Below are positions 13,268 through 30,050 of a stretch of DNA of 36,068 nucleotides, piece after piece (within the stretch, counting starts at the first letter, position 1; each line of letters begins with the position of its first letter). Under the pieces are notes generated by a model. That model saw only the letters and a list, made by a program, of their open reading frames with translations. It had not been told where the DNA came from and made no database searches. Source of the DNA: Patescibacteria group bacterium (GTDB lineage Bacteria > Patescibacteriota > Minisyncoccia > Phycocordibacterales > UBA9973); the NCBI GenBank assembly GCA_043818335.1, contig JBDRFV010000004.1, forward strand, positions 1 through 36,068, written 5' to 3'. Made by a program: the position numbers and the translations under genes.

Positions 13268-13295
13268 AGATCGGTACCTTTCGAGATACCGATCT
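13268..13295. terminator. Bidirectional terminator hairpin between convergent genes
   Basis: 9-bp stem agatcggta/taccgatct, with an A-run upstream and T residues downstream. Confidence 0.7.
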
Positions 13296-13309
13296 TGTGT
13301 AACTTTTTC

Positions 13310-14059: not shown

Positions 14060-14117
14060 GATTTCTGAATTTTAGGTTAGTATTATGAAATTTATTTTAT
14101 TTACAATTATCTACAAT

Positions 14118-14888
14118 TTACTCGAAGCTTATTGTATCATGTAAATACGCTCCTGTCAAGTTTGGGCTTAGAATTATATAAGTCTTTTGATCTAAGGGTT
14201 TTCTATTTCTTTGCGTAAATATAGAACTTATAGCAGATATATCAATATATTGTTCCGTTGCGGGATTTACTTTTGCAAAAACAAAAAGTCCTCGAGTTTT
14301 TTTAGACTCAAATGGCTTGCTGGCTGGTGGAACAATAGAAGTATTTGCAAGAGCAATTGGTTTTCCTTCTTTACTATATAGAACTGCATTGGCGTGAACT
14401 TCAGATATGTCAAAACTATTTGGATTTGATATTTTGAATCTTACTTCGTAAGATTTGTCTTGTTTAGCAACTTCTGTATTTACTATTTTAATATTTGGTT
14501 CTTTAAAATCTTTTGCCAAAATCCAATTAGTATCGCCAATTGCAATTTCTGCTCGGGCGAGCATATTTTGTTTACTATCAATTCTAGTTTTTACGATAGT
14601 TTCTGTTTCATTAGCATAAATAAAGAATGATTCTTGATTTGATATTACTACATTATCTTTATCATCATAAAAATTTATTTTGTAAGTAAAATTATCCGAC
14701 GCCCAGTTTCTGTTGGGATTTTTTATCTCAAAAACTACTGACACATAATGAGTATCTTCCCATAAAATAGTTGGTACAGTTGCTGTAAGTGGTTTTTGTG
14801 TTTTGGAAGCTGAATTAAAAACTAAAAAATAAAGGGCTGTTGCAACTGCAAGTGTTATTAAAATTGAAATTATTATTTTTTTTGACAT
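14118..14888 (-). CDS. Hypothetical membrane-anchored protein with two similar beta-rich repeats
   Basis: N-terminal TM helix, then two related segments (VVFEIKNPNRNWAS... and VRFKISNPNSFDIS...). Confidence 0.6.
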   Translation of the reverse strand: MSKKIIISILITLAVATALYFLVFNSASKTQKPLTATVPTILWEDTHYVSVVFEIKNPNRNWASDNFTYKINFYDDKDNVVISNQESFFIYANETETIVKTRIDSKQNMLARAEIAIGDTNWILAKDFKEPNIKIVNTEVAKQDKSYEVRFKISNPNSFDISEVHANAVLYSKEGKPIALANTSIVPPASKPFESKKTRGLFVFAKVNPATEQYIDISAISSIFTQRNRKPLDQKTYIILSPNLTGAYLHDTISFE

Positions 14889-15001
14889 AAGGATTATAAG
14901 TTGTTTTTATAAGTTTATAATGTTTTAATAATATCATGCATGGGGAAGATAGGAAATGGGGGAATTTATGGTGTTGGTGGGTGGAAAATAAAGGTTAAAA
15001 A

Positions 15002-15010
15002 TGTTATAAT
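15002..15010 (+). promoter_or_regulatory. Extended -10 box TGTTATAAT upstream of hsdM
   Basis: Exact TGnTATAAT 14 nt before the ATG at 15025. TGGAAA lies 17 nt upstream as a weak -35. Confidence 0.5.
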
Positions 15011-15024
15011 CACTGCATTAATTT

Positions 15025-16476: not shown

Positions 16477-16481
16477 TTTTT

Positions 16482-16964
16482 ATGGCTGATTTAAATTTAA
16501 TTAAGGTGGAGAATAAGTTTGAAAATGGTTCTCTTGATTTTCTAAATCCAATAAATTGGTTTAGGAAAAAATACACAAAAGATAGTGTAAATATTTTATT
16601 CATTGATGACCTAGATATGCCAGTTGTGGAAAGTTTAAAGAAAGCCCACTTTAAAGTTAAAAAGGTTAGAGATGTTAAAGATGTGGATGATGCGGAAGTT
16701 AAAAATGCTCAGATAATTTTTGTCGATTTTGATGGAGTTGGAAAATTTGTGTCCCCCCAACATCAAGGTGCTGGTTTGGTTAAGGAATTAAAAATAAAAT
16801 ATAAATCTTCTAAATATGTTGTTTTTTATACAGCTCAACCTAATATACCTACAGACACAATAATGAGTTCCATGTTTAATATGGCAGATGCAAGAATGAG
16901 AAAAGATTCAGATGTAACAGATTTTACAGAACAAATACGTGAAGCCCTAAAAAAGTTAAAATGA
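16482..16964 (+). CDS. Receiver (REC)-like domain protein embedded between hsdM and hsdS
   Basis: 160 aa. ILFIDDLD (D42, D43), IIFVDFDG (D82/D84), VVFYTAQ (T117) and RMRKDS (K141) follow the order and spacing of CheY-like key residues. Assignment by eye only. Confidence 0.55.
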   Translation: MADLNLIKVENKFENGSLDFLNPINWFRKKYTKDSVNILFIDDLDMPVVESLKKAHFKVKKVRDVKDVDDAEVKNAQIIFVDFDGVGKFVSPQHQGAGLVKELKIKYKSSKYVVFYTAQPNIPTDTIMSSMFNMADARMRKDSDVTDFTEQIREALKKLK

Positions 16965-17956
16965 TTTTTTTTGAAGTAAAAGATAATAATGGAAAAATTA
17001 TTGCAGGTAATATGCAAGATTTTTCTGGAAGGAATAAGTTTGAAAACAATAAAAATTTTTCTGAAAATAAAAATGGAAAGGGGTTGAAGGGTATTCACGA
17101 AATTATAGAAAATGTTAGTCTGTGGGTAATCATTGAAGATGAGTATGATTTATTAAAAAGCTCAAAACTTCTTAAGAAAACTATTACTCTGTATAGAGTT
17201 ATTGCTCTTGGTGTATATAAACAATACAAAAAAGAGATTAACGCATATGCACATATATTAAACACAATTCAAGCACAAATTAGACAACAGTTAGATAACT
17301 TTGCTGATAATAAAGAGTTTTTCGGGGAAACATATACTGATTCAGTAGAAAAGATATCAAAAATTATAAATGATGATAAAGAATCTGCAGCTGATCTAAT
17401 CTGTTATATACAAAAGAGAATTATAGATATGAGGGCACATCTTCTTGGTGTTGAAATAATTAATTCAGGTGAAGAATATGAAATAAAACCAATGGTAGTT
17501 AGTTTGAAAAGAGCAATTTTAAATCAATGCACTCCATTTTTAGAAGAATTTGAAAAAAACATGATTAACATAAAATTCTTTTTTGGAGATGAATGTGAAA
17601 CTAAGGTTGATAAAAATATGTTTAGTCTCATTATGTATAATTTTTTTTCTAATGCAACAAAATATACTAAACCGAATAGTGAGATAAGGTTTAATTACTC
17701 AAATGATCTAAAAAGCCTTGATATTTCTATGATAAGTTTAAGAATGGAAAGGCACGAGCTTGCAGATTTATCCATGGATGGAGTGCGAGGGCAACATGCA
17801 AAAAATATACCAGGTAAAGGAATTGGTCTATTTGTTATACAAAAAGCTTTAGAATTGATGAAAAAAGACAAAATGTATATATCACCAAATTACGAAAAAG
17901 TTTTTTATGAGGATGATCTTACTTATAATGAGAATCATTTTAAATTTGTATTATGA
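16961..17956 (+). CDS. Cytoplasmic histidine-kinase-like (GHKL) protein embedded between hsdM and hsdS
   Basis: 331 aa with no TM helix. N-box MYNFFSNATKYT (N231), G2-like GKGIGLFVIQ, and a candidate H-box AYAHILNTIQ (H98). No clear DxGxG G1 box. ATGA overlaps at both ends. Confidence 0.6.
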   Translation: MIFFEVKDNNGKIIAGNMQDFSGRNKFENNKNFSENKNGKGLKGIHEIIENVSLWVIIEDEYDLLKSSKLLKKTITLYRVIALGVYKQYKKEINAYAHILNTIQAQIRQQLDNFADNKEFFGETYTDSVEKISKIINDDKESAADLICYIQKRIIDMRAHLLGVEIINSGEEYEIKPMVVSLKRAILNQCTPFLEEFEKNMINIKFFFGDECETKVDKNMFSLIMYNFFSNATKYTKPNSEIRFNYSNDLKSLDISMISLRMERHELADLSMDGVRGQHAKNIPGKGIGLFVIQKALELMKKDKMYISPNYEKVFYEDDLTYNENHFKFVL

Positions 17957-19104
17957 AAACTAAATGGCAGACAAAAAAATTTGGAGAAGTTTGTGATTTT
18001 TATAATGGAAAAGCACATGAGAAAGTTATTGATGCAAACGGCAATTATATCGTAGTAAATTCAAAGTTTATATCTTCTGATGGTGAAAAATATAAAAAAA
18101 CAAAAAAAGCACTTTTCCCGTTAATTAAAGGTGATATTGTAATGGTAATGAGTGATGTTCCAAGTGGAAAAACCTTAGCTAAGTGTTTTATTATAGATAA
18201 AGAGAATACATACACCTTAAATCAGCGAATTTGTGCCATTCGTTCTAAAGTATTTGAGACAAGATTTCTATATCTTCAACTCAACAGACATAAATATTTA
18301 TTGAGTTTTGATAATGGAGAGAATCAAACAAATCTTAGAAAAGATGATATTTTAAATTGTCCATTACTTGTTCCACCTATTTTAGAGCAAAAACATATAA
18401 TAAAAACTCTAGATGAAATGTTTGAAAAAATTAAAAAAGCCAAAGAAAATACTGAAAAGAATCTACAAAATTCTAAGGCACTTTTTGAATCGTATTTACA
18501 GGATATTTTTACGAACCCAGGAAAAGATTTAGAAGAAAAGAAATTAGGAGATGTTTGTGATTTTGTACAGGGTATTCAGGTTGACGCAAAACTTCAAAGT
18601 GAAATAAAAAAAGAAAACCAAATAAGATTTTTAAGAATAATAGATTTTACGCAAGGTGATGAATTACCTCGTTATATAGATAACCCAGGTGAAAAATATA
18701 TAATTAACTCAAATGATATTTCATTAGTTAGATACGGGGCATCAACTGGTTTTGTATGTAAGGGATTGAACGGAGTATTGGCTAATAATCTATTTAGGGT
18801 GATACCAAAAAATAACAAAGAAATATCTAATGAATATTTATATATTTTTTTAATGTCTCCTGTTTTTCAAAATTCAATTAAAGCAAGTATGGGTGGAACA
18901 GCAATGCCAGCGATAAGTTTTGGTTTAATAAAAGATATAATAATTCCATTAATGTCATTTTCTGAACAAAAAGCTATTGTCAAAAAACTTGATGAGCTTT
19001 CAAATCAAACTAAAAAACTAGAAGTTATTTACAAACAAAAGCTAGCAGATTTAGAAGACTTAAAGAAGTCGGTTTTAAAAAAGGCTTTTGTAGGGGAGTT
19101 ATAG
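17953..19104 (+). CDS. hsdS: Type I restriction-modification system, specificity subunit S
   Basis: Two target-recognition halves each open with KKFGEVCDF / KKLGDVCDF. Each is followed by a conserved helical spacer (EQKHIIKTLDE..., EQKAIVKKLDE...). Confidence 0.9.
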   Translation: MKTKWQTKKFGEVCDFYNGKAHEKVIDANGNYIVVNSKFISSDGEKYKKTKKALFPLIKGDIVMVMSDVPSGKTLAKCFIIDKENTYTLNQRICAIRSKVFETRFLYLQLNRHKYLLSFDNGENQTNLRKDDILNCPLLVPPILEQKHIIKTLDEMFEKIKKAKENTEKNLQNSKALFESYLQDIFTNPGKDLEEKKLGDVCDFVQGIQVDAKLQSEIKKENQIRFLRIIDFTQGDELPRYIDNPGEKYIINSNDISLVRYGASTGFVCKGLNGVLANNLFRVIPKNNKEISNEYLYIFLMSPVFQNSIKASMGGTAMPAISFGLIKDIIIPLMSFSEQKAIVKKLDELSNQTKKLEVIYKQKLADLEDLKKSVLKKAFVGEL

Positions 19105-19153
19105 GAATAGAGACTCCACACTAAGGCATATATAGGTAATACAAAAGTAAAAC

Positions 19154-19200
19154 AGTTTGTATACAAGTGTTGACCTAATATATACAAACTAGGGTATTTT
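19154..19200 (+). promoter_or_regulatory. Perfect 10-bp inverted repeat AGTTTGTATA-N17-TATACAAACT enclosing TTGACC
   Basis: Arms at 19154-19163 and 19181-19190. TTGACC at 19170-19175 is followed 19 nt later by TATTTT (19195-19200). Candidate operator/promoter. Confidence 0.4.
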
Positions 19201-19213
19201 GTATCTATGTAGA

Positions 19214-19282
19214 GTAGTTATGAACAGTGAATGAGTAGATTGATGTATTTTTGGGTAGATTTAGTGGCTAGTTGTGTAGATT
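19214..19282 (+). repeat. Four phased direct repeats GTAG(A)TT at 19214, 19235, 19255 and 19276
   Basis: Spacing is 21, 20 and 21 bp, about two helical turns. A tandem GATAGTAT GATAGTAT follows at 19285-19300. Confidence 0.6.
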
Positions 19283-19291
19283 TAGATAGTA

Positions 19292-19300
19292 TGATAGTAT
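19292..19300 (+). promoter_or_regulatory. Extended -10 box TGATAGTAT, 6 nt before the ATG at 19307
   Basis: Hexamer TAGTAT at 19295-19300, spacer taaaat, then ATG. Confidence 0.4.
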
Positions 19301-19306
19301 TAAAAT

Positions 19307-20026
19307 ATGGAAGAAAAATTATTAACAATTGGTCAAGCCGCTGAATATCTTGGGGTTTCTTTGAATACTCTTCGTCGTTGGGACGAAAATGGTAAATTGG
19401 TTGCTATTAAAAAAGATGGTGGAACTCATCGATATTATCGTGAAAAAGATTTAGAAATATTTACCAGTGATTTAATGAGTTTTGCTTCTGAGTGGATTAA
19501 AACAGGAGTCGAATTTCCAGGAACATTTTTTTGTCCTACAAGTTCAATTTTTAATGCTAGACTAACAAAAATGGAATATGCATTAATGCAGAAACCAGGG
19601 TTTGAAAAGTTATATTCTTTGATTGTTCTTCTTGCTGGAGAAATCGGTGATAATTCATTTGCTCATAATATAGGAAAATGGCCAGATACAGTGGGAATTT
19701 TTTTTGGTTATGATTTAGAAAAAAGAATTATCGTACTAGCTGATCGAGGATTAGGTATTTTAGAAACATTACGGAAAGTCAGACCAGGACTTTCTAGTCA
19801 TGTAGAAGCAGTCAGAGTGGCATTTACTGAATTTATTTCTGGCAGGGCTCCAGAGAAACGCGGAAATGGTCTAAAGCTTGTTCGTGAAGTAATTACAGAA
19901 AATCCAATTGATTTATTTTACACAACTGGTGATGCTGAAGTAAGAATGAAAGGTTCGGACAAAGCATTTCATGTTATGCGTGGTCAGCATATAGTGAGAG
20001 GTTGTTTAGCAAAAATAGAATTTTAA
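19307..20026 (+). CDS. MerR/excisionase-type HTH fused to an anti-sigma-kinase-like GHKL ATPase domain
   Basis: N-terminus LTIGQAAEYLGVSLNTLRRWDENGKL. The C-terminal half has GEIGDNSFAHN (N-box-like), ADRGLGI (G1-like) and RGNGLKLV (G2-like). Confidence 0.6.
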   Translation: MEEKLLTIGQAAEYLGVSLNTLRRWDENGKLVAIKKDGGTHRYYREKDLEIFTSDLMSFASEWIKTGVEFPGTFFCPTSSIFNARLTKMEYALMQKPGFEKLYSLIVLLAGEIGDNSFAHNIGKWPDTVGIFFGYDLEKRIIVLADRGLGILETLRKVRPGLSSHVEAVRVAFTEFISGRAPEKRGNGLKLVREVITENPIDLFYTTGDAEVRMKGSDKAFHVMRGQHIVRGCLAKIEF

Positions 20027-20046
20027 AATTTTAATAAATAAAAAAT

Positions 20047-20337
20047 ATGAAATTACAACTAGGAAAATTTGGCAAAACATTAATATCACGGGAATTAGGG
20101 AGTGAGGCTCTTAAGGCATTTCAGTCAACACTGCGTGAGCTTTCTAAAGATGAAGAACTTGAAATAGATTTTTCTGAGGTATTAACGTTGTCACCTTCAT
20201 GGGCTGATGAATTTTTAAGTCCACTGCTTGATATTCTTAATGATCGCTTGATTTTATTATCTAGTGATAATCTTTCAGTACAAGCAACACTTAAAATTCT
20301 TAAAGAGGTTAATAAGCGACCATTTAAAATAAGATAA
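20047..20337 (+). CDS. STAS-like (DUF4325-like) small protein
   Basis: 96 aa. The core EIDFSEVLTLSPSWADEFLSPLL resembles the DF-x-V-x3-S-x-S-F-x-DE pattern of STAS-like/anti-sigma-antagonist folds. Confidence 0.55.
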   Translation: MKLQLGKFGKTLISRELGSEALKAFQSTLRELSKDEELEIDFSEVLTLSPSWADEFLSPLLDILNDRLILLSSDNLSVQATLKILKEVNKRPFKIR

Positions 20338-20342
20338 ACTTT

Positions 20343-22700
20343 ATGAACGAATCAGAAACACGAGCAGAATACATTGACCCAAAACTTAAAGCGAGTGGCT
20401 GGGGTGAAGTGGAAGGCTCAAAAATTCTTCGAGAATTTCGTATTACAGATGGAAAAATTTTAACTGGTGGAACGAGAAGTAAACCTGAAATTGCTGATTA
20501 TGTTTTAATATATAAAAATAGAAAGATTGGAGTTGTAGAAGCTAAAGCAGAAAATTTACCAATGACTGAAGGAGTAGCTCAAGCTAAAACTTATGCAGAA
20601 AAGTTGCATATTGATTACACATATTCAACAAACGGAAAAGGAATTTATGAGATTTCAATGAAAACAGGAGAAGAGAAAGAAATTGAAAAATTTCCAACAC
20701 CTGAAGAACTTTGGAATAAAACTTTTTCTGATCAAAATGAATGGAAAGAAAAATTTGATAATATTGCCAACGAAGGCGAATATGGCAAGCGTTATTATCA
20801 ACAAATAGCTATTAGTAATGTTTTAAATGCTATTGCAGAAGATAAAAAGAAAATACTTTTAACAATGGCTACTGGAACTGGAAAAACCGCTGTCGCTTTT
20901 CAAATTGCTTGGAAACTTTTTCAAACTAGATGGACTTTAAAAGGTGATGGTGAACGACGTCCAAGAATATTATTTTTAGCTGATAGAAATATTTTAGCTG
21001 ATCAAGCATATAATGCTTTTTCTGCTTTTGATAAAGATGCATTAGTTCGTATCAATCCTTTAGATATTCGCAAGAAAGGTGGAGTGCCGATGAGTAATAG
21101 TATTTATTTTACAATTTTTCAAACTTTCATGAGTGGGGCGAATGATACACCATATTTTGGAGATTACCCAAAAGATTTTTTTGATTTTATCATTATTGAT
21201 GAATGTCATCGTGGTGGTGCAAATGATGAAAGTAATTGGCGGGGAATTTTAGAATATTTTTCTCCCGCAGTTCAATTAGGATTAACCGCTACTCCAAAAA
21301 GACAAGACAACACTGATACTTATAAATATTTTGGTGAGCCAGTTTATATTTATTCTCTTAAAGAAGGAGTGAATGATGGATTTTTGACACCATTTAAAGT
21401 TAAGCGAATAAAAACTACTTTAGATGATTATGTTTATACTTCTGATGATCAGATTATTGAAGGAGAAGTAGAAGAAGGAAAAATTTACGAAGAGTCTGAT
21501 TTTAATCGAGTTATAGAAATAAAAGAACGTGAATCTAAAAGAGTTCGTATAGTTTTAAATGAAATTAATCAAAATGAAAAGACAATTATATTTTGCGCTA
21601 CTCAAGATCATGCTTTAGCTGTCCGTGATTTAATAAATCAAATGAAAGACAGTAAGGATCCAAATTATTGTGTTCGTGTAACTGCGAATGATGGATTTCG
21701 TGGTGAACAATATTTGAGAGAGTTTCAAGACAATGAAAAAACAATTCCAACGATTTTAACTACTTCTCAAAAACTTTCTACTGGAGTAGATGCTCGTAAT
21801 ATACGAAATATTGTTTTGATGAGACCTGTAAATTCAATGATTGAATTTAAACAGATTATTGGGAGAGGAACTAGACTTTTTGATGGTAAAGAATATTTTA
21901 CTGTTTATGATTTTGTTGACGCTTATCACCATTTTGCTGATCCAGAATGGGATGGTGATCCAGTAGTAGAGATTTGTTCAAATTGTGGAAAAGATCCCTG
22001 TGAGTGTGAAAAACAGCCTCCAAAAGTATGTTCTGTATGCAATAAAAGACCTTGCGAGTGTGAAAAACCACCTAGAATTTGTCCTGTATGCAAGAAAGAC
22101 CCATGTGAATGTGATGCAAAGAAAAAAATAAAAATAAAATTAAGAGATGGAAAAGAAAGAGAAATTCAACACATGATTTCTACTTCATTTTGGGGAGCAG
22201 ATGGAAAACCTATTTCTTCTGAAGAATTTATTACTAAAATATATGGCGTATTACCAGACTTCTTCAAGAATGAAGATGAATTAAGAATAATTTGGTCTAA
22301 TCCAATAACAAGAAAAGAATTTTTACAAAGACTTTTTGATTTAGGAATTGATTTAGAACAATTAGATAATATTCGAAAAGTAGTTAATGGAGAAGATTGT
22401 GATTTATTTGATGTTCTTTCATATTTGTCATACCACACACCATTAATTACTAGACAGCAAAGAATAAATAATACAAAAGAAAATATTTTTGCTGGAGTTG
22501 ATGAAAAGAATAAAGAATTTTTAGATTTTGTTTTATCTAAGTATGAAGAAAAAGGAGTAGAAGAATTGGATGAAGAAAAATTACCACAATTACTAAATCT
22601 TAAATATCATGCAATTTCTGATGCAATAAATATTCTTGGTGATGTTGATTTAATCCGTTCAACCTTTTTTGATTTTCAAGAACATTTGTATAGTAAATAA
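20343..22700 (+). CDS. hsdR: Type I restriction-modification system, restriction/helicase subunit R
   Basis: N-terminus ESETRAEYIDPKLKASGW with the nuclease core ADYVL...GVVEAKA. Helicase motifs TGTGKT and DECHRG plus later motifs. Cys-rich insert at residues ~545-591. Confidence 0.93.
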   Translation: MNESETRAEYIDPKLKASGWGEVEGSKILREFRITDGKILTGGTRSKPEIADYVLIYKNRKIGVVEAKAENLPMTEGVAQAKTYAEKLHIDYTYSTNGKGIYEISMKTGEEKEIEKFPTPEELWNKTFSDQNEWKEKFDNIANEGEYGKRYYQQIAISNVLNAIAEDKKKILLTMATGTGKTAVAFQIAWKLFQTRWTLKGDGERRPRILFLADRNILADQAYNAFSAFDKDALVRINPLDIRKKGGVPMSNSIYFTIFQTFMSGANDTPYFGDYPKDFFDFIIIDECHRGGANDESNWRGILEYFSPAVQLGLTATPKRQDNTDTYKYFGEPVYIYSLKEGVNDGFLTPFKVKRIKTTLDDYVYTSDDQIIEGEVEEGKIYEESDFNRVIEIKERESKRVRIVLNEINQNEKTIIFCATQDHALAVRDLINQMKDSKDPNYCVRVTANDGFRGEQYLREFQDNEKTIPTILTTSQKLSTGVDARNIRNIVLMRPVNSMIEFKQIIGRGTRLFDGKEYFTVYDFVDAYHHFADPEWDGDPVVEICSNCGKDPCECEKQPPKVCSVCNKRPCECEKPPRICPVCKKDPCECDAKKKIKIKLRDGKEREIQHMISTSFWGADGKPISSEEFITKIYGVLPDFFKNEDELRIIWSNPITRKEFLQRLFDLGIDLEQLDNIRKVVNGEDCDLFDVLSYLSYHTPLITRQQRINNTKENIFAGVDEKNKEFLDFVLSKYEEKGVEELDEEKLPQLLNLKYHAISDAINILGDVDLIRSTFFDFQEHLYSK

Positions 22701-22715
22701 GAAATTAATTTAAAA

Positions 22716-22724
22716 TGCTATAAT
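22716..22724 (+). promoter_or_regulatory. Extended -10 box TGCTATAAT, 6 nt before the ATG at 22731
   Basis: Hexamer at 22719-22724, spacer taaccc, then ATG. Confidence 0.5.
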
Positions 22725-22730
22725 TAACCC

Positions 22731-23144
22731 ATGATCTTAAATTTAATTTGTTTAGCCTTATCAGTAGGTGGGTTATATATCTCATATAGAATCTATAAGG
22801 AAAAGCATTCTGGCAAGCCGATGATTTGTCCCTTGAATGGCAAATGTGAAATTGTTCTAACTAGCAAATATGGAAAAATCGCTGGCATTGGGCTGGAATA
22901 TTTTGGAATGCTTTTCTATGGAATTATTTTAATTGGAAGCAATATATTGTTGGCTGAAGTTTGGTATTCAGGGCAGGTTAGTCTTATTTTATTTATAGTT
23001 GCCTGTGGCGGAATGTTGTTTACTGTTTACTTAACAATTATTCAGAAATTTGTATTGAAAAGCTGGTGCACTTGGTGTCTGTCTTCTGCTTTCACCACTA
23101 GTTCTGTTTTTGTTGTTTTAATAATTAAAATGTTATTAAAATAA
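22731..23144 (+). CDS. Vitamin K epoxide reductase (VKOR) family membrane protein
   Basis: Four hydrophobic helices, loop cysteines CPLNGKC and the active-site-like CTWC in the last helix. Confidence 0.7.
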   Translation: MILNLICLALSVGGLYISYRIYKEKHSGKPMICPLNGKCEIVLTSKYGKIAGIGLEYFGMLFYGIILIGSNILLAEVWYSGQVSLILFIVACGGMLFTVYLTIIQKFVLKSWCTWCLSSAFTTSSVFVVLIIKMLLK

Positions 23145-23153
23145 AATCAAATT

Positions 23154-23181
23154 TTGACATAATGCTTTTTTGTGGTAAGAT
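23154..23181 (+). promoter_or_regulatory. Promoter TTGACA-N16-TGgTAAGAT of small-protein cassette A
   Basis: Exact -35 hexamer and an extended -10-like box. Copy B has a parallel element. Confidence 0.55.
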
Positions 23182-23228
23182 TTAAGTAGAAATTATTTGT
23201 TTTTATTAATTAAAAAATAGGAGGTAAA

Positions 23229-23426
23229 ATGGCAACTCAAAAAGCCAAGAAATCAAAGAAATCTCCCCAGAGATTTTTTCTTTTTTTTAAACCGTTAAAA
23301 AAGCAACTTGGGAAACAGCTCCCAATCTTTGCCGGCACAAAAAATGAAGCCAACGGTTTTGCATTATCTAATTTTACAATAGATGATCTTGCGGAGATTG
23401 AGGAATCACAGCCTCTTCGTCCTTAA
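23229..23426 (+). CDS. Small basic/acidic bipartite protein, copy A (65 aa)
   Basis: Preceded by a perfect AGGAGG, which is rare in this window. Paralog of 26636..26830. Confidence 0.7.
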   Translation: MATQKAKKSKKSPQRFFLFFKPLKKQLGKQLPIFAGTKNEANGFALSNFTIDDLAEIEESQPLRP

Positions 23427-23444
23427 GTATCATAGACAAAATAC

Positions 23445-23478
23445 AGCCGTGTTGTTCATTCAGCATGGCTTTTCTTTT
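23445..23478 (+). terminator. Terminator of cassette A
   Basis: agccgtgttg-ttcatt-cagcatggct (10-bp stem with two G-U pairs) followed by TTTT. Confidence 0.65.
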
Positions 23479-23483
23479 GCCTG

Positions 23484-23492
23484 TGTTATAAT
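23484..23492 (+). promoter_or_regulatory. Extended -10 box TGTTATAAT, 6 nt before the GTG at 23499
   Basis: Hexamer at 23487-23492, spacer taatta, then GTG. Confidence 0.5.
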
Positions 23493-23498
23493 TAATTA

Positions 23499-24467
23499 GT
23501 GAAAAAGAAAAATATTAAAAATAAAAAGTTGATTATTTTTCAAGCAAAATCTGGAGCTATTGAACTTCGAGGTGACTTTAAACGTGAAACCGTATGGGCT
23601 ACACAGGCTCAAATAGTTGAACTTTTTAGGGTTGATCAATCAGTAGTTTCTCGCCATATTAAGAATCTTTTTAAAGATGGAGAAATAAAACAAAAAAGCA
23701 ATATGCAAAAAATGCATATTGCAAATTCAGATAAACCTATAACCCTTTATTCTCTTGATGTTATTTTAGGAGTAGGCTATAGAACAAATTCAAAAATAGC
23801 TATAGAATTTAGAAAATGGGCAACAAAAACTTTAAGTAATTATATAGTAGACGGTTATGCGATAAACAAAAATAGAATTGCAAAAAATTATGATGAATTT
23901 TTGAAAACAGTAGAAAATATTAAAAATATTTTGCCATCTGGAACGGCTATAGATAATAAAGATGTAGTCGATTTAATTTCTCTTTTTGCTGATACTTGGC
24001 TTTCTTTAGATGCTTATGATAAAGAAATTTTTCCTAAAGGAAAATTAACAAGAAAAAAGGTTACTTTTACTGCTCAAACAATTTCAAAAAATCTATCACA
24101 ATTTAAAATAAGTTTATTAGAAAAAGGTGAAGCCAGCGATATTTTTGGAATAGAAAGAGAAAAGGGAAATGTTTCTGGAATTATTGGAAATGTAATGCAA
24201 TCTTTTGGTGGAAAAGAATTATACTCAACTATTGAGGAAAAAGCTGCACACCTGCTTTATTTTATGGTTAAAAATCATCCTTTTATTGATGGCAATAAGC
24301 GTAGTGGCGCATTTGTTTTTGTGTTGTTTTTACAACAAGCAAAAGTTTTAAATATCAGAAAAATTACACCATCCGCTTTAACTGCGCTTACTATTATGGT
24401 TGCAGAGAGCAACCCTAGTCATAAAGAAAAAGTTGTTAAATTAATTTTGGACTTAATTTCTAGATAA
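23499..24467 (+). CDS. RhuM-like N-terminal domain fused to a Fic/DOC domain
   Basis: The N-terminal half has ETVWATQAQIVELFRVDQSVVSRHIKNLF...AIEFRKWATKTL (RhuM-type). The C-terminal half has the Doc-type motif HPFIDGNKRSG. Confidence 0.8.
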   Translation: MKKKNIKNKKLIIFQAKSGAIELRGDFKRETVWATQAQIVELFRVDQSVVSRHIKNLFKDGEIKQKSNMQKMHIANSDKPITLYSLDVILGVGYRTNSKIAIEFRKWATKTLSNYIVDGYAINKNRIAKNYDEFLKTVENIKNILPSGTAIDNKDVVDLISLFADTWLSLDAYDKEIFPKGKLTRKKVTFTAQTISKNLSQFKISLLEKGEASDIFGIEREKGNVSGIIGNVMQSFGGKELYSTIEEKAAHLLYFMVKNHPFIDGNKRSGAFVFVLFLQQAKVLNIRKITPSALTALTIMVAESNPSHKEKVVKLILDLISR

Positions 24468-24479
24468 TTAGTATAAAAA

Positions 24480-24488
24480 TGTTATAAT
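24480..24488 (+). promoter_or_regulatory. Extended -10 box TGTTATAAT
   Basis: 40 nt upstream of the ATG at 24529. The paralogous box lies at 27523-27531. Confidence 0.45.
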
Positions 24489-24528
24489 TAACATATTAGA
24501 AAAGGTGTATTAATTTACAATAATTATT

Positions 24529-24888
24529 ATGAAAACAAAAGTATTTTTTATTGTGGCGAAAGTTAGTGTAATTTTAATAGCGCTTTTTACTACTATTTTT
24601 AGAGTTACAGAAATTGTGCTTTTTAAAGGTACAGAGGGGTATTCATTGGCAACCAATGTTTCTGGAATGTTAGTTTTATTAGCTTTACTTATAGTTTTTT
24701 ATTTTGCTTTACAAATAAGAAGAAAGTGGGGTTTTTGGTATAGTATCTTTATGTCATTTTTCTTGCTTTTCGCTTATTTATTTAAAACTCCTTTTAATTG
24801 GTTCTACGCTGGAGTTGTGGTTCTTTCTGTAGTTTTGATTGTTTCTTTGTTTATTATTAAAAAAGATTTTAAGAAAATAGTAAAATAA
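24529..24888 (+). CDS. Hypothetical multi-pass membrane protein, copy A (119 aa)
   Basis: About 100 of 119 residues are identical by eye to 27574..27933. Confidence 0.7.
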   Translation: MKTKVFFIVAKVSVILIALFTTIFRVTEIVLFKGTEGYSLATNVSGMLVLLALLIVFYFALQIRRKWGFWYSIFMSFFLLFAYLFKTPFNWFYAGVVVLSVVLIVSLFIIKKDFKKIVK

Positions 24889-24890
24889 TT

Positions 24891-25754
24891 ATGGTTAAAA
24901 ATATAAAAAAAATAAGCGTTTTAATTTTATTATTAGCTGTTTTTGTTTTAACACCAAGTTTAGTTTCTGCCCATCAGCCAAGAATTACTGACAGTACTGA
25001 AATTACTGTTGTTGATCCAGAAATATCAAAAGCATATTATGGACAACTTTCTGGAGATTTTGATTTATATACAATAAATTCAGAACAGCCTTTTGATTTT
25101 TATGTAAATATTTTAGTTCCAGATATTATTGATCAAAAAACTGATTTGTTTGCTCTTATTGTAAAAGATAAAAAAGACCAAGAACCGTTTGCTTTTCTGA
25201 ATGGTGTTGATTTTGAATGGCAAAAATTTCATGAACCATTTGGAAATGATGATTATTTAATGGGACCAGAATATAAAGTTCAAGCTGAAGCTGGAGATTA
25301 TGATATTTATGTTTGGAGTAATGATAATACTAATAAATATGCTTTAGCAATTGGTGAAAAAGAAAATTTTGATTTTAAAGAAATAGTAAATGCTATTACT
25401 TTAATTCCTAAAATTAAGAAAAACTTTTTTAATGAGTCACCAGTTAATTTTATTTTCTCACCATTTGGTTGGGGATATATTTTAATAATGTTTGCTTTTG
25501 CTTTTATTGTAGGTTTTATTTATAGATTAATAATTAGAAAATTAGCTAAAAATTCTAACAGACGTGTTGGGAAAAATATAAATAAAAAAGATAGACTAAT
25601 TCGTTTGGCTTTAGCTGTAATTTTATTATTAGTAGCTATTTTGACAAATTGGTGTGCTATTCTGATATTCTTTGCGGGATTTTGTTTATTTGAAGCTATA
25701 TTTAGCTGGTGTGGACTTTATGTTGCACTTGGTAAAAATACTTGTCCTGTTTAA
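24891..25754 (+). CDS. Exported protein with a C-terminal DUF2892-like (YgaP-like) membrane domain
   Basis: Signal peptide ending SLVSA|HQPR. The C-terminus RLIRLALAVILLLVAILTNW...CGLYVALGKNTCP resembles DUF2892. Confidence 0.6.
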   Translation: MVKNIKKISVLILLLAVFVLTPSLVSAHQPRITDSTEITVVDPEISKAYYGQLSGDFDLYTINSEQPFDFYVNILVPDIIDQKTDLFALIVKDKKDQEPFAFLNGVDFEWQKFHEPFGNDDYLMGPEYKVQAEAGDYDIYVWSNDNTNKYALAIGEKENFDFKEIVNAITLIPKIKKNFFNESPVNFIFSPFGWGYILIMFAFAFIVGFIYRLIIRKLAKNSNRRVGKNINKKDRLIRLALAVILLLVAILTNWCAILIFFAGFCLFEAIFSWCGLYVALGKNTCPV

Positions 25755-25757
25755 TTT

Positions 25758-25766
25758 TGTTATAAT
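25758..25766 (+). promoter_or_regulatory. Extended -10 box TGTTATAAT
   Basis: 43 nt upstream of the ATG at 25810. Confidence 0.4.
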
Positions 25767-25809
25767 TAAAGTATTATTAATTTATTTTAAAAATATATGA
25801 ATAAAAAAT

Positions 25810-26544
25810 ATGAATAAAAAAGGAAAACTTTTAGTATTAGCGTTTATTTTGTTAGTTTTATTACTAATATGGGTAATAACTTATTTTAAAAATAATAAAG
25901 AAGAAGTAGAAGAAGTAGAAGAAGTTATTCCAGAACAATCATCAATTGTAGCTCGTTTTGATTGTGCAAATGGAAGTTTTATTGATGCTGAGTTTAATAA
26001 TAATCAAGAACAAAAATCTGTTGATTTAACTTTAAGCGATGCGAGGAAATTTACTCTACCTGAAGTTATTTCTGCTTCGGGGGCAAGATATGCGAATGCA
26101 GATGAAAGTTTTGTTTTTTGGAATAAAGACGATACGGCATTTATAGAAGAAGGTGGCCAAACTACTTATACTGATTGTGTTATGAAAAAAGTAGAAGATA
26201 CTAATTTAATTGGCGGTGATGCAGACGAACATGGTTGTCTTGCAAGCGCAGGATATTCTTGGTGTAAAATAAAAAGTAAATGCTTAAGAGCTTGGGAAGA
26301 AGCTTGTGAAGTTTCTAATCTTGTTTCACCAGTTAAAAAATTAGTTATAAAAAACGAGACTATTTGTAAGGAAAATAATGGTGTTTGGTATTCAGACGAT
26401 AAAATTTGTGAAATAAATTCTTTTTTAAAAACAGAATGTGTAGAAAAAGGTGGAGTTCATAATGATTGTGCTTCAGCCTGTCGTCATGATCCAGATGCAG
26501 AGATTTGTACTTTGCAATGTGTTATAACTTGTAGTTTTAAGTAA
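25810..26544 (+). CDS. Membrane-anchored MliC-like domain protein with a Cys-rich C-terminal half
   Basis: FDCANG...LPEVISASGARYANADESFVFWNKDDTAF...YTDC resembles lysozyme-inhibitor MliC domains. 15 Cys after the anchor. Confidence 0.55.
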   Translation: MNKKGKLLVLAFILLVLLLIWVITYFKNNKEEVEEVEEVIPEQSSIVARFDCANGSFIDAEFNNNQEQKSVDLTLSDARKFTLPEVISASGARYANADESFVFWNKDDTAFIEEGGQTTYTDCVMKKVEDTNLIGGDADEHGCLASAGYSWCKIKSKCLRAWEEACEVSNLVSPVKKLVIKNETICKENNGVWYSDDKICEINSFLKTECVEKGGVHNDCASACRHDPDAEICTLQCVITCSFK

Positions 26545-26557
26545 ATTTGAAAAACTT

Positions 26558-26586
26558 TTGACAGTTTGTTTTTAATATGCTATTAT
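26558..26586 (+). promoter_or_regulatory. Promoter TTGACA-N17-TGcTATTAT of small-protein cassette B
   Basis: Exact -35 hexamer, 17-nt spacer and an extended -10. Confidence 0.6.
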
Positions 26587-26635
26587 TTTAGTAGAAATTA
26601 TTTGTTTTTATTAAATAAAAAATAGGAGGTCTAAA

Positions 26636-26830
26636 ATGGCTAAAGGAAGTAGGAAATCAAAGAAATCTCCCCAGGGATTTTTTCTTTTTTTTAAACCGTT
26701 GAAAAAGCAACTTGGGAAACAAATCCCAATTTTTTCGGGCTCAAAGAAAGAAGCTGACGGCTATGCGCTGTCTAATTTCACAAAAGACGAGCTTGCGGAG
26801 ATTGAGGAATCACAGCCTCTTCGTCCTTAA
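26636..26830 (+). CDS. Small basic/acidic bipartite protein, copy B (64 aa)
   Basis: AGGAGG lies 6 nt upstream. Paralog of 23229..23426. Confidence 0.7.
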   Translation: MAKGSRKSKKSPQGFFLFFKPLKKQLGKQIPIFSGSKKEADGYALSNFTKDELAEIEESQPLRP

Positions 26831-26848
26831 GTATCATAGACAAAATAC

Positions 26849-26882
26849 AGCCGTGTTGTTCATTCAGCATGGCTTTTGTTTT
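26849..26882 (+). terminator. Terminator of cassette B
   Basis: Same hairpin sequence as 23445-23478. Confidence 0.65.
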
Positions 26883-26887
26883 GCTTG

Positions 26888-26896
26888 TGGTATAAT
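26888..26896 (+). promoter_or_regulatory. Extended -10 box TGGTATAAT
   Basis: 40 nt upstream of the ATG at 26937. Confidence 0.45.
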
Positions 26897-26936
26897 TAAA
26901 CTATTAGAAAAGTTATTTAAATTTTTGTTAATTGTT

Positions 26937-27530
26937 ATGAAAAAGAAAAAAATAATTATAATAGTGCTTATTATTATCGCAGTTTTAGTAGTTTTATTTA
27001 CAGTTCGAATTCCTAAACAAAATAAAACATCTGTAGAGCAAACTGGTTTAATTAATGAAGAAGAGAAAAAGATAGTAACTGATGATTTTGAGATTGTTCT
27101 TCCTGCGGGCTGGGAGAAAACTACACCGGCGATGGGAACTTCGGCAATGGCCGTTAAAATTAATGAAGATTTAAACGATCCTACAGCGCAGAAAATTAAT
27201 TTTAGAAGTTATTTTGCTGTAAGTTATGACACACTTCAAGATAAAACTATGCCCGAATATCTAGAAATTCTTAAAAATGGAGTAAAGCAGACTGCTTCAG
27301 GTGTTGTCTTAACTAAAGATGAAGATTTAACAATAAATAACAAACTAGCTCATGTTATAGAAGCAAAAATAGCTCAGCAGGGAGCAGATTTTAAAGTTTT
27401 ACTAATAATAATTACTGGACAAGAAAAAGATGTTTGGGTAATGTCTTTTAACACAACTCAAGGCAAATGGGAAGAATACAAAGATGTTTTTTATGGTATA
27501 GCTAATAGTTTTAAGTTAAAAATGTTATAA
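26937..27530 (+). CDS. Membrane-anchored exported protein (197 aa), PsbP/DcrB-like pattern
   Basis: I chose the internal ATG of track ORF 26712..27530. It follows the terminator and promoter and begins MKKKKIIIIVLIIIAVLVVLF. The longer form would overlap the small gene and its terminator. Confidence 0.65.
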   Translation: MKKKKIIIIVLIIIAVLVVLFTVRIPKQNKTSVEQTGLINEEEKKIVTDDFEIVLPAGWEKTTPAMGTSAMAVKINEDLNDPTAQKINFRSYFAVSYDTLQDKTMPEYLEILKNGVKQTASGVVLTKDEDLTINNKLAHVIEAKIAQQGADFKVLLIIITGQEKDVWVMSFNTTQGKWEEYKDVFYGIANSFKLKML

Positions 27531-27531
27531 T
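27523..27531 (+). promoter_or_regulatory. Extended -10 box TGTTATAAT
   Basis: Overlaps the stop codon of the preceding gene, 42 nt upstream of the ATG at 27574. Confidence 0.45.
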
Positions 27532-27573
27532 TTAGTATATTAGAAAAGTTTTATTAATTAAAATAAATATATT

Positions 27574-27933
27574 ATGAAAACAAAAATATTTTTTATCGTG
27601 GCGAAAGTTAGTGTAATTTTAATAGTATTATTTACAACTGTTTTTAGAGTTACAGAAATAATACTTTTCAAAGGTACAGAAGGTTATTCATTACTTTATA
27701 ACATTTCTGGAATGTTGTTTTTACTTGCTTTGTTAGCAGTTTTTTATTTTGTTTTACAAACAAGAAAGAAATGGGGGTTTTGGTATAGTATTATTATGTC
27801 ATTTTTCTTGCTTTTAGCTTATTTATTTAAAACTCCTTTTAATTGGTTCTATGCTGGAGTTGTGATTCTTTCTGTAATTCTAATTATTTCTTTATTTATT
27901 ATCAGGAAAGATTTTAAGAAGATAATAGTATAA
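27574..27933 (+). CDS. Hypothetical multi-pass membrane protein, copy B (119 aa)
   Basis: Paralog of 24529..24888. Confidence 0.7.
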   Translation: MKTKIFFIVAKVSVILIVLFTTVFRVTEIILFKGTEGYSLLYNISGMLFLLALLAVFYFVLQTRKKWGFWYSIIMSFFLLLAYLFKTPFNWFYAGVVILSVILIISLFIIRKDFKKIIV

Positions 27934-27946
27934 ATATAAAAAAAAT

Positions 27947-29515
27947 ATGAAAAAAAAGAAAGTTTTTTATATTAGTATAGCCATTTTGGTTTTTATACTT
28001 ATCATTTTTGTTTTATATAAAATTGGAGAAAATGAGGAGCAGAAAGCTGTTTTGGAAAGTGAAACAGAAAAGCTTGGAACAAGTGAACAAAACGAAGTAG
28101 AAATAGAAAACATAAAAGAGAAATTAGTAGGAAAAAATACAGTACAAAATACAAGTTGGGTTTTGTATAAAGATCCTCATGGTTTTTCAATAACTAAACC
28201 TACAGATTGGCAAGTCAAAGTTGATAGTTCAGGATTAATTCTTATCGGCGCTGATCCTTCAACAAAAAAAGGCCCTATTGTTTTTATGGAGACGCTAATT
28301 TCTTCAGAACCTCAAACAAATCAGCAGGTTCTTGATAGTGTAAAAAATGATTTAAAAAAAGTATTCCCAAATTTTGAAATAGTTAATACAAGAACAATAG
28401 GCCAGTATAAATCATTGGTCGGTCAGATAAAATATACAGGTAGTGAACATACTGGCGTTATTCTTGTTTCTGTTGATAAAAATAATGCTTTTGTTTCTGG
28501 AATAGCTGATGAAAAAGAAAATTTTGAGTCAGCACGACCTGATTTATTGAAAACTCTTTCTACTTTTCAATATAATAATTCTTTAAAAGATGTGTCAAAA
28601 GTAGCGGGAGTTGTTCGAATGGTGCCATGGAAAGATCCCAAAGAAGGAGCTTTTACTCTTAATGTTCCCAGTGGTTGGAATATTTCCGGTGGAACAGTTA
28701 GACCATATATTGATGCGGCAACAAAAATTATTGCCACATTAGGTAATAAAGGAATTCAAATTGAAAATATATATTCGCCTATTTTTGAAGCACCAAATGC
28801 TGTGACTGAATTTGCTGGATTTCCTGAAGGTTCGCATTATAATCCTTCCGGTGGTATTAGCCAAGATATGATTATTATGTCCGAACGTAATGCTGGAGAA
28901 TATATAAGAACGCTTTTGCCTAATTATTTAAATTTAAATTTTAAAAATATAAAATCAAGGCCAGATATAGCCGAAAAAATAACTAAATTAGTATACAATA
29001 CTGAACCGAGTGTTGCAGAAGCTTCGGCAACTGGAAATGATGGATTAATACATAAAGTGCTTGTGACAAAACAAGGAATGAGTATTAGTGGAATTGTATT
29101 ATGGTATGTTTGTTTGACTCATTATTGGGCGCCAGAAAGCGATATATCGACAGTTGAAAATATTATTGAACAAATGGGTAATTCTTTTAAAATTGATTCT
29201 ACTTGGGCTAATCGTGAAGCGCAGGAGGTGGCAAAAAGAAGTCAGATTATCAGCCAGACTGGCGCGGAAATTTCCGATATAATATCTTCTACTTTTGAAT
29301 ATCAATCGCAAGTGCAGGATAAGATATCAGATAAGTTTTCTAATGCAATGTTAGGCGTGGAAGATGTTTATAATCAAGAAACTGGAGAAAGTTACAGAGT
29401 TCCTAATACTTCTAATTATTATTGGACAGATGGTTATAATTTTATTGTTGGCACAGAAACACATGATGTACCAACTAATTTAGATAATTGGACTGAACTA
29501 ATACCAATAGAATAG
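27947..29515 (+). CDS. Membrane-anchored exported protein (522 aa), unknown function
   Basis: N-terminal TM helix, then a long non-repetitive ectodomain with two P-x-x-W strand motifs (KPTDWQV, VPSGWNI). Confidence 0.65.
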   Translation: MKKKKVFYISIAILVFILIIFVLYKIGENEEQKAVLESETEKLGTSEQNEVEIENIKEKLVGKNTVQNTSWVLYKDPHGFSITKPTDWQVKVDSSGLILIGADPSTKKGPIVFMETLISSEPQTNQQVLDSVKNDLKKVFPNFEIVNTRTIGQYKSLVGQIKYTGSEHTGVILVSVDKNNAFVSGIADEKENFESARPDLLKTLSTFQYNNSLKDVSKVAGVVRMVPWKDPKEGAFTLNVPSGWNISGGTVRPYIDAATKIIATLGNKGIQIENIYSPIFEAPNAVTEFAGFPEGSHYNPSGGISQDMIIMSERNAGEYIRTLLPNYLNLNFKNIKSRPDIAEKITKLVYNTEPSVAEASATGNDGLIHKVLVTKQGMSISGIVLWYVCLTHYWAPESDISTVENIIEQMGNSFKIDSTWANREAQEVAKRSQIISQTGAEISDIISSTFEYQSQVQDKISDKFSNAMLGVEDVYNQETGESYRVPNTSNYYWTDGYNFIVGTETHDVPTNLDNWTELIPIE

Positions 29516-29608
29516 ATCCGATTCCTAATATTGTTATTTTTTTATTTTTTGTTAGAATTTAAGTAAAGGTCTAAATAAGTATATTATAAGATTTAATTTT
29601 AAAATAAT

Positions 29609-29857
29609 ATGGAAAAAGAAATAGGAAAAGTAACACATTATTATGACAAAATAAATGTTGCGGTGATTAAACTTGATGGAAAGCTTAAAAAAGGGGATAA
29701 AATAAAAATAAAAAAAGGGGACGAAGAAATTGAAGAAGTAATAAATTCAATGCAGATAGATCATAAAGATGTGGATTCTGCGAAAAAGAGAGACGATGTT
29801 GCGATTAAATTAATACATAAAACAAAAGAAGGCGCGATTGTTTTTCTTATTGAATAA
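29609..29857 (+). CDS. Small beta-barrel protein resembling EF-Tu domain 2 (translation elongation factor-like protein)
   Basis: 82 aa. The pattern IGKVTHYYDKINVAVIKLDGKLKKGDKIKI...VAIKL is typical of stand-alone translation-factor domain II-like barrels. Confidence 0.5.
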   Translation: MEKEIGKVTHYYDKINVAVIKLDGKLKKGDKIKIKKGDEEIEEVINSMQIDHKDVDSAKKRDDVAIKLIHKTKEGAIVFLIE

Positions 29858-29871
29858 TAATTAAAAAAAAT

Positions 29872-30015
29872 ATGGTTAAAAAAATAATAATTTTTGTTTT
29901 TGCAACAGGTGTAATGATTTTAGGAGTTTACTTTTCTATGGATTATCTAAAAGAAAAGGGTTTAATTAAAAATGATAATACACAAATTGTTGGTGAAGAT
30001 AAGATACAGATGTAA
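29872..30015 (+). CDS. Possible 47-aa single-pass membrane peptide (MVKKIIIFVFATGVMILGVYFSMDYLKEKG...)
   Basis: Hand-translated ORF below the track cutoff, followed by a terminator. Resembles the ORF at 186..329. Confidence 0.35.
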   Translation: MVKKIIIFVFATGVMILGVYFSMDYLKEKGLIKNDNTQIVGEDKIQM

Positions 30016-30027
30016 ATTCAATATAAT

Positions 30028-30050
30028 GCGGACAGAAATGTTCGCTTTTT
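30028..30050 (+). terminator. Rho-independent terminator overlapping the priA stop codon
   Basis: gcggac-agaaat-gttcgc followed by TTTTT. Confidence 0.6.

Follow-up and report, generated by a model that had tools for sequence, protein, structure and literature searches.

A duplicated small-protein cassette with a strong Shine-Dalgarno sequence and probable concerted evolution in a Patescibacteria group bacterium

A 36,068-nt stretch of DNA from a Patescibacteria group bacterium (contig JBDRFV010000004.1, forward strand), here called the window, carries two copies of a short cassette for a small protein of 64 or 65 residues. Copy A (23154-23492) and copy B (26558-26896) lie 3.4 kb apart in direct orientation. 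We consider it probable, if by no means certain, that the two are paralogous, self-contained expression units for a lineage-restricted, fast-evolving small protein, and that the blocks of identity between them come from gene conversion, with no separate RNA function. Each unit has its own predicted strong promoter, U/A-rich leader, perfect Shine-Dalgarno (SD) sequence and intrinsic terminator. The small gene is, in addition, a consistent exception to the rarity of strong SD sequences in its Paceibacteria clade.

Results

Two self-contained expression units

The original prediction, read from the window by itself, had described a duplicated cassette of promoter, leader, AGGAGG, open reading frame (ORF), terminator and TGnTATAAT element. 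Re-reading and aligning the two copies, all of whose elements lie on the plus strand, confirmed nearly every point of it. In copy A, the promoter P1 (23154-23181) joins TTGACA (23154-23159) through a 16-nt spacer to an extended -10 element, TGg-TAAGAT, that ends at 23181; with the TG included, 10 of 12 positions match. Copy B has the same TTGACA (26558-26563), followed by a 17-nt spacer and TGc-TATTAT ending at 26586 (P1, 26558-26586; 11 of 12 matches with the TG). A promoter scan of 22500-28200 returned these as the top two sigma-70-like matches, and the alignment shows that the hexamers are kept, whereas the spacers have diverged.

The leaders occupy 23185-23228, which is U/A-rich, and 26590-26635, with AGGAGG at 23219-23224 and 26624-26629, respectively. 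Their lengths follow from a transcription start site (TSS) placed 7 nt past the -10 element (near 23188 in copy A). On this placement the leader itself stands, but it measures about 41-43 nt instead of the roughly 45 nt first given to it. The 5′ end of the copy A leader can form a weak A-U hairpin (-4.1 kcal/mol, z -1.1).

ORF A (23229-23426) encodes 65 residues with a basic N-terminal half, the core PIF.G..E..G[FY]ALSNFT.D[DE]LAEI and an acidic tail. ORF B (26636-26830) encodes 64 residues and is 78% identical to it at the protein level. Both ORFs are richer in GC (0.37-0.41) than the gene mean (0.31). For copy B the public gene call (26699-26830) is a 43-residue product that starts from an internal TTG and overlooks the ATG behind the SD at 26636, which illustrates how small genes of this type come to be mis-annotated.

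Intrinsic terminators follow at 23445-23480 and 26849-26884, and a scan recovered both. The stem in copy A (23445-23470) has 10 bp and a 6-nt loop and is followed by a U-tract; the stem in copy B lies at 26849-26874. Each cassette closes with a second extended -10 element, P2, which reads TGtTATAAT in block A (23484-23492) and TGgTATAAT in block B (26888-26896), and over the U-tract and this element the copies agree at 19 of 22 positions. The P2 element of block A stands 6 nt before the GTG of a RhuM-Fic/Doc gene, which copy A adjoins with a gap of 72 nt; copy B precedes a gene for a PsbP-like exported protein. We also considered the cassette as a copy of the GC-rich hairpin repeat of this genome and rejected this idea, as no further copy occurs within the window.

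Identity between the copies is clustered

The alignment of copies A and B has 343 columns, of which 51 differ, and we assessed the lengths of identical runs by permutation. The longest run, 86 nt (23388-23473 in copy A and 26792-26877 in copy B, plus strand), covers the last 12 codons and the stop codon, an 18-nt spacer and the terminator hairpin. Runs this long or longer arise with P = 1.5e-5, and the summed length of the three longest runs gives P < 5e-6. This block had already been noticed, as had a 25-nt block in the leader, which is indeed identical in the two copies.

Divergence changes abruptly along the ORF. Codons 2-7 form a hypervariable island, with a proportion of nonsynonymous differences (pN) of 0.59 plus a 3-nt indel. 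In codons 8-30 only 3 of 69 nt differ, with a proportion of synonymous differences (pS) of 0.15; in codons 31-53 the count is 18 of 69 (pN 0.15, pS 0.65). From codon 54 to the stop codon there is no difference in 39 nt (pS 0 in codons 54-65), and none in the 44 nt of the 3′ untranslated region (UTR) up to the end of the stem. The heterogeneity at synonymous sites, with pS at 0.65 in the middle and 0.09 in the codons to either side, is significant (Fisher P = 7e-4).

A second duplicated segment served as a yardstick for the age of the duplication: a gene for a 119-residue membrane protein, present in block A (24529-24888, plus strand) and as a paralog in block B (27574-27933, plus strand). Synonymous divergence (dS) is 0.49 for this pair and 0.42 for the whole small ORF, and the duplication is therefore not recent. 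Against the silent background set by the 119-residue pair (pS 0.36), leader and 3′ UTR together show about 3 differences in 88 nt (binomial P = 2e-13), which bears out the claim of stronger conservation in the UTRs than in the coding sequence. Uniform conservation along the cassette, as a simple recent duplication would leave, is not seen; as judged from the two window copies, the non-uniformity is significant.

The diverged middle shows that the ORF is a protein gene under protein-level purifying selection, because 10 of 18 changes in codons 31-53 are synonymous (about 22% expected without constraint; binomial P = 0.002), 7 of the 8 replacements there are conservative and the sole indel in the ORF is 3 nt long. 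The protein alignment contains 50 identical positions in 65 columns, the number that had been estimated by eye, and the coding constraint in this region agrees with the original prediction of a real small-protein gene with its own expression signals.

The 86-nt tract spans the 6-nt loop of the terminator, the 18-nt spacer and the synonymous sites of 12 codons, all of which are normally free to vary. Because identity extends over such sites, we favor homogenization over selection. Gene conversion or mosaic recombination between A and B would homogenize the leader together with codons 8-30, and again the stretch from codon 54 to the end of the terminator. This homogenization would overlie an older duplication with a dS of about 0.4-0.5.

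Relatives of the small gene are found by synteny

A word-indexed search of 5.8 billion proteins matched only the two products of the window itself. Searching 1.84 billion representative proteins with phmmer returned copy B plus one further entry, P0003, a eukaryote-like tandem-repeat protein that we rejected as a spurious, repeat-inflated match, so the peptide homology search that had been proposed earlier gave no informative match in this collection. Pattern scans of genome, metagenome and viral contigs, a degenerate DNA pattern for EIEESQPLRP plus stop codon in both large contig collections, and tblastn against phages and plasmids likewise found no relative. Pfam, NCBIfam, PHROGs, PADLOC and PDB gave no family match to the small protein, and the neighborhoods of homologs of the 119-residue membrane protein (loci L001-L011) held no relative of the small gene.

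Relatives were recovered via synteny at priA, in related Paceibacteria. PriA of the window (30049-32046, minus strand) has homologs that are 66-70% identical and whose sources name Paceibacterota, Minisyncoccia or Nomurabacteria. In loci L012, L014, L017 and L018, the 3′ end of priA is adjoined by a small monocistronic gene. This gene has a promoter and a terminator to itself, its A-rich leader contains GGAGG, and the N-terminus of its product is rich in lysine. Its product has 52 residues in L012/L013, where the gene again lies at the 3′ end of priA, and 57 residues in L018-L020, where it is found downstream of VKOR and a PF20603 hydrolase. Nothing occupies the site next to priA in L015, L016 and L023. 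The small-gene family sits in the variable rsmI-priA island of a Paceibacteria (Parcubacteria, Candidate Phyla Radiation [CPR]) clade.

Homology was measured as z against window proteins A and B with 3000 shuffles. It reaches significance in L014 (z 6.5-9.1) and L017 (z 5.4-6.1), and both of these genes are interrupted, the former by a stop codon and the latter by a -1 frameshift. In L014 (12228-12010, minus strand; 55 residues), TAA takes the place of the Leu46 codon, and homology runs 17 codons further (GYA*NTFTKDEMLEL, the asterisk marking the stop, versus GYALSNFTKDELAEI), with third-position differences in the homologous stretch past the TAA. The stop is no assembly error, because the exact 55-residue product is present on 7 contigs. 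In L017 (4311-4043, minus strand), the start frame ends after 36 residues and the core lies in the -1 frame. Where the two frames overlap there is a 0-frame A_AAA_AAG heptamer, followed 12 nt further on by a hairpin, and the gene could be either a pseudogene or a case of programmed frameshifting. For the window copies we rejected productive frameshifting at the T8 run, where both shifted frames stop within 0-3 codons.

The sequence similarity of the L018 and L012 proteins to the window proteins is not significant, and these genes would best be described as positional analogues. L018 is tied to the window by VKOR synteny, a similar promoter and similar terminator arms. At the priA-side site of L021 (4783, minus strand) and L022 there is instead a gene for a 110-residue membrane protein, which is unrelated to the small gene yet has a similar leader and SD (AAAAATTGGAGGTCTTT-ATG, much like copy B). 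The expression module of these two loci may have outlived a swap of the coding sequence.

Segments identical between the copies are labile between species

Conservation across species is confined to the core. The conserved columns P32, G36, G43, F49 and E56 and the motif SNF[TS].[DN]E all fall within codons 31-57, whereas no conservation is seen in the basic N-terminal sequence, in the C-terminal tail EESQPLRP or in the UTRs. When seven upstream regions were aligned, only the promoter hexamers and AAAAAT.GGAGG proved conserved. The leader of L017, the closest relative, is identical at 33 of 40 nt over the U/A tract and SD, and of the 25-nt leader block L017 alone retains a part, namely its 3′ half. 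Neither blastn nor nhmmer found a match to the 3′ block, and the 3′ ends of L012, L014, L017 and L018 have only the presence of a terminator in common. The stem arms of L018 resemble those of the window terminator; the changes in them are compensatory, U-A having become C-G and G.U having become G-C, as expected of a terminator.

The segments that are identical between A and B are thus labile between species, whereas the species-conserved core (codons 31-57) is the part in which A and B have diverged most, largely through silent changes or conservative replacements. Ends that are identical in the paralogs yet labile across species favor conversion over purifying selection on those ends. As expected of conversion, identity is clustered along the paralog alignment and the tracts include both unconstrained and species-labile sites. 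The U/A-rich tract and SD appear to be the sole part of the leader under selection, as an ordinary cis-acting translation signal, and the terminator is probably selected only as a hairpin. Comparing relatives to separate protein-level from RNA-level conservation, as had been suggested, therefore supported the protein core but not the 3′ block or most of the leader. The original prediction had offered selection or gene conversion at the RNA ends and had taken it to point to an RNA-level function; gene conversion fits best, and the RNA-level function is not upheld, as the ends are not conserved across relatives.

The small gene is an exception to rare SD sequences

Our survey of SD sequences covered 155 gene starts, about 43 in the window and 112 in the relatives. 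In the window, GGAGG occurs 4-10 nt upstream of 2 starts, both of them copies of the small gene, in agreement with the earlier remark that AGGAGG is scarce outside the cassettes. The remaining window starts are preceded by A/T-rich sequence, and for many of them a -10 box lies within a few bases. Among the 112 starts in the relatives, 8 have an SD-like motif of at least 5 nt, and 5 of these 8 belong to the gene at the priA-side site (the small gene in four loci, the 110-residue gene in L021). Each of the 5 loci with the small gene has an SD in front of it. Recent foreign origin was rejected as the cause of the SD, the gene being syntenic across relatives.

In Parcubacteria, bS21 is often absent and about half lack the CCUCCU motif (PMC9297842). 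In F. johnsoniae, rpsU is the single gene with a strong SD and is autoregulated via pairing of the SD with the anti-SD (ASD) (PMC13000453, PMC9976891). The small gene shares the property of a near-sole strong SD; this striking parallel is one of behavior and does not show that the protein belongs to the bS21 family. Profiles for bS21 (Pfam PF01165, NCBIfam rpsU) gave no match to the A, B or relative proteins even at E ≤ 10, and PDB profile searches gave no match to a ribosomal chain.

Folding of the transcripts

The full mRNA folds with a z of -4.4 in copy A and -3.2 in copy B. These values are weakened as RNA evidence because the terminator contributes much of them. With the terminator removed, z is -3.2 (A) and -1.8 (B), and -0.6 to -2.8 in the relatives, which overlaps the background of 30 ordinary coding windows of the genome (mean -0.6, sd 1.0, minimum -3.6). 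Folding of the mRNA without its terminator is not consistently unusual. Three predicted hairpins coincide with conserved blocks: H1 at codons 9-20 (z -3.4 in copy A, only -0.7 in copy B), H2 at codons 27-32 and H3 from codon 54 to the stop codon (z -2.1). RNAalifold applied to A and B proposes 79 pairs, none broken and one compensatory, although two-sequence input biases it toward compatible pairs.

Within H1, the lysine codons of KSKKS pair with the phenylalanine and leucine codons of FFLFF in a 10-bp hairpin (23250-23290 and 26654-26694). Basic peptide and hairpin are one imperfect palindrome read two ways, and the sole replacement, R15G, turns a U-A pair into U.G.

No Rfam family reached its gathering threshold in the cassettes; the best match was rnk_leader (23.7 bits against a threshold of 50, E 0.09), and in the window as a whole only a tRNA at 112-183 passed. 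In the Sequence Read Archive (SRA), only two DNA metagenomes carry the sequence, as identical fragments at a depth of about 2-4, with no variant strain and no RNA run.

The protein

The protein consists of a lysine-rich N-terminal half, a short conserved core and an acidic C-terminal helix; KKSKKSPQ, KALKRKKALKKPKQK and KAKRKAKE are examples of the basic stretches. AlphaFold2 models from two- and four-sequence alignments have a predicted local distance difference test (pLDDT) score of 67 and 62 and are mostly coil, with helices at about residues 37-44 and 50-59. Its composition would best suit an abundant and largely disordered protein that binds nucleic acids and is associated with the ribosome or the nucleoid.

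The surrounding island

In the window, rsmI and priA are separated by about 17 kb (13243-30048) that hold a type I restriction-modification (R-M) operon, VKOR and both cassettes. In L015/L016 rsmI directly neighbors priA, and in L021 only the SD-led 110-residue gene lies between them. The gap in other loci contains RelB/ParE, type ISP or Eco57I-like R-M, NYN, LexA-like, VKOR and MliC-like cargo, which marks it as a hot spot for defense and envelope cargo in these genomes. An ORF at 13310-14059 (minus strand; GC-rich at 13316-13537) has a GC content of 0.44 and a GC content at third codon positions (GC3) of 0.51, compared to gene means of 0.31 and 0.20, and plus-strand ORFs overlap it; it may be something other than a normal native gene.

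The window contains three copies of a 37-nt A/T-rich repeat (TATTAGAAAAG..), at 24488-24524, 26896-26932 and 27532-27568. Two copies stand 5′ of the two genes for the 119-residue protein, and one directly follows P2 of block B. This placement suggests an ancestral unit made up of the small gene, terminator, P2 and the 119-residue gene, into which the Fic/Doc and PsbP-like genes were inserted later.

Discussion

We prefer gene conversion as the source of the identical blocks, and several observations weigh against this view. The three near-identical blocks are split by codons 2-7 and by the middle of the ORF, a pattern that a single conversion tract does not give; several conversion events, patchy repair or later import into the middle would be needed. 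The limits of identity fall about 3 nt before the placed TSS and in the terminator U-tract, as selection on the RNA predicts. The low z of the full mRNAs points the same way, and none of the four differences in codons 8-32 disrupts a predicted hairpin (one changes U-A to U.G, two fall in a loop and one lies outside). The relatives are distant, with PriA at 66-70% identity, and a young, lineage-specific RNA element is not expected to be conserved there. For the protein, the proposed function comes from composition, and no fold or family supports it.

These points bear most directly on the idea that the ends act as RNA, with a regulatory or stabilizing leader, structured coding segments and a 3′ stability element or small RNA (sRNA), so that the transcript would have a dual function. 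The hairpins on conserved blocks, the absence of broken pairs, the bounds of identity, the elevated GC content of the ORFs and the similarity of the L017 leader all speak for it. We nevertheless regard it as unlikely, though still worth keeping in view: orthologous cassettes retain neither the 3′ block nor most of the leader, the folding without terminator falls within the range of coding sequence, the covariation comes from two sequences, no Rfam family matches, and H1 is weak in copy B. Selection on structure would also not be expected to give perfect identity in loop and spacer. The strong SD invites a different account, in which the family with a perfect SD, in a clade whose ribosomes mostly disregard SD pairing or lack it, would be a ribosome-associated factor whose synthesis depends on whether the 16S anti-SD tail is available, as with rpsU/bS21 in Flavobacteriia. 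The constant SD in a setting where SDs are otherwise rare, the small size (52-65 residues) and basic character reminiscent of bS21, the frequent loss of bS21 and CCUCCU in Parcubacteria and the F. johnsoniae precedent would fit. We find this improbable, since the protein has no similarity to Ribosomal_S21 or to ribosomal proteins in Pfam, NCBIfam or PDB, differs from bS21 in having an acidic tail, and is encoded by a dispensable gene (absent from L015, L016 and L023, truncated in L014, frameshifted in L017), and since a strong SD may merely serve high expression. In a bolder form, the one family that always keeps a perfect SD in a clade of mostly SD-less or leaderless genes would encode a new ribosome-associated factor whose synthesis reports on unoccupied 16S 3′ tails or is gated by them, making it the CPR counterpart of the rpsU/bS21 loop; the L014 and L017 homologs would then be recoded and not dead. 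This seems to us more doubtful still.

The neighborhood of copy A raises the thought that the small protein is an antitoxin or partner of the RhuM-Fic/Doc protein, its acidic C-terminal helix neutralizing the toxin as in Phd-Doc or VbhA-VbhT. Its position 72 nt before the Fic/Doc gene, its small size and its disordered N-terminus with a C-terminal helix are what such a partner might show. However, copy A and the Fic/Doc gene are set apart by a terminator and a second promoter, copy B precedes a PsbP-like protein and no toxin, the small gene occurs in relatives with no Fic/Doc neighbor, and by inspection the (S/T)xxxE(G/N) inhibitory motif is absent, all of which make this very improbable. Least probable of all is an element akin to type I toxin-antitoxin (TA) systems or to attenuators, that is, an antisense-controlled small ORF or a leader peptide in which FFLFF steers read-through into downstream genes. 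There are minus-strand promoter-like sites (23458 to 23429 and 26862 to 26833), minus-strand hairpins with a T-run (23325 to 23308 and 26729 to 26712), an intragenic hairpin with U6 in copy B, and weak, sub-threshold Rfam matches to leader families. Yet the promoter-like sites match at only 9 of 12 positions, and 31 were found against 32.5 in shuffled sequence; the protein, as read from its sequence, has no transmembrane segment; and the Rfam matches (E 0.09-9) are far under gathering scores. For an attenuator, moreover, the 65-residue ORF runs 33 codons beyond the hairpin, FFLFF at codons 16-20 lies 45 codons before the stop codon, and the downstream genes differ between the copies, each with its own promoter. 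We rejected the antitoxin, type I TA and attenuator readings, as the defining features of each are missing.

Gene conversion therefore remains our preferred reading. The conservation of the UTRs is most likely ordinary concerted evolution and is not to be counted as a new regulatory RNA. That the family is invisible to profile searches of 1.84 billion representatives and could be traced by synteny only shows how fast such genes turn over in CPR bacteria.

Comparison with known systems

Concerted evolution by gene conversion keeps paralogs such as tufA/tufB and the rRNA operons near-identical regardless of functional constraint. The two cassettes resemble tufA/tufB of Salmonella and E. coli and the rRNA operons in that paralog identity lies in clustered tracts that include silent sites. 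They differ from tufA/tufB in that the tracts are short (about 45-110 nt) and patchy, and in that the most conserved part of the protein is unconverted.

At the RNA level, SR1/SR1P, RNAIII/hld and SgrS/SgrT are dual-function RNAs, and CpxQ, DapZ and SroC are sRNAs derived from 3′ UTRs. The cassettes share with these a short, structured monocistronic transcript, a small protein and a 3′ end that is more conserved, but here the conservation is between paralogs only and not across species, and there is no Rfam match. A strong promoter, a 5′ hairpin, a U/A tract, a strong SD and a tight terminator together characterize mRNAs that are abundant and stable. The strong promoter, 5′-terminal hairpin, U/A tract, perfect SD and tight terminator seen here recall the cryIIIA STAB-SD and the ompA or aprE leaders; unlike in those cases, the 5′ hairpin is weak (-4 kcal/mol, z about -1) and is not conserved in relatives.

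Among proteins, Chlamydia Hc1, the C-terminal tail of HupB and AlgP are lysine-rich, histone-H1-like bacterial proteins with low-complexity basic stretches. The small protein is like them in its K/A/P-rich basic stretches, its size and its predicted disorder. It has no detectable homology to them, and its SNFTKDELAEI core and acidic tail are without counterpart there.

The closest parallel for the SD is rpsU/bS21 of Flavobacterium johnsoniae and other Flavobacteriales, where a small basic protein likewise has a near-sole strong SD in an SD-poor lineage (PMC13000453, PMC9976891, PMC7797042). The small protein differs from bS21 in lacking sequence similarity to it and in its acidic C-terminal tail, and the small gene differs from rpsU in being dispensable, duplicated, often interrupted and located in a variable island. 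If the two were nonetheless regulated alike, this would be an autoregulatory loop of the rpsU/bS21 kind built on an unrelated, fast-evolving protein. The SD exception itself offers a concrete handle on the remaining use of the anti-SD in organisms that barely use SD sequences.

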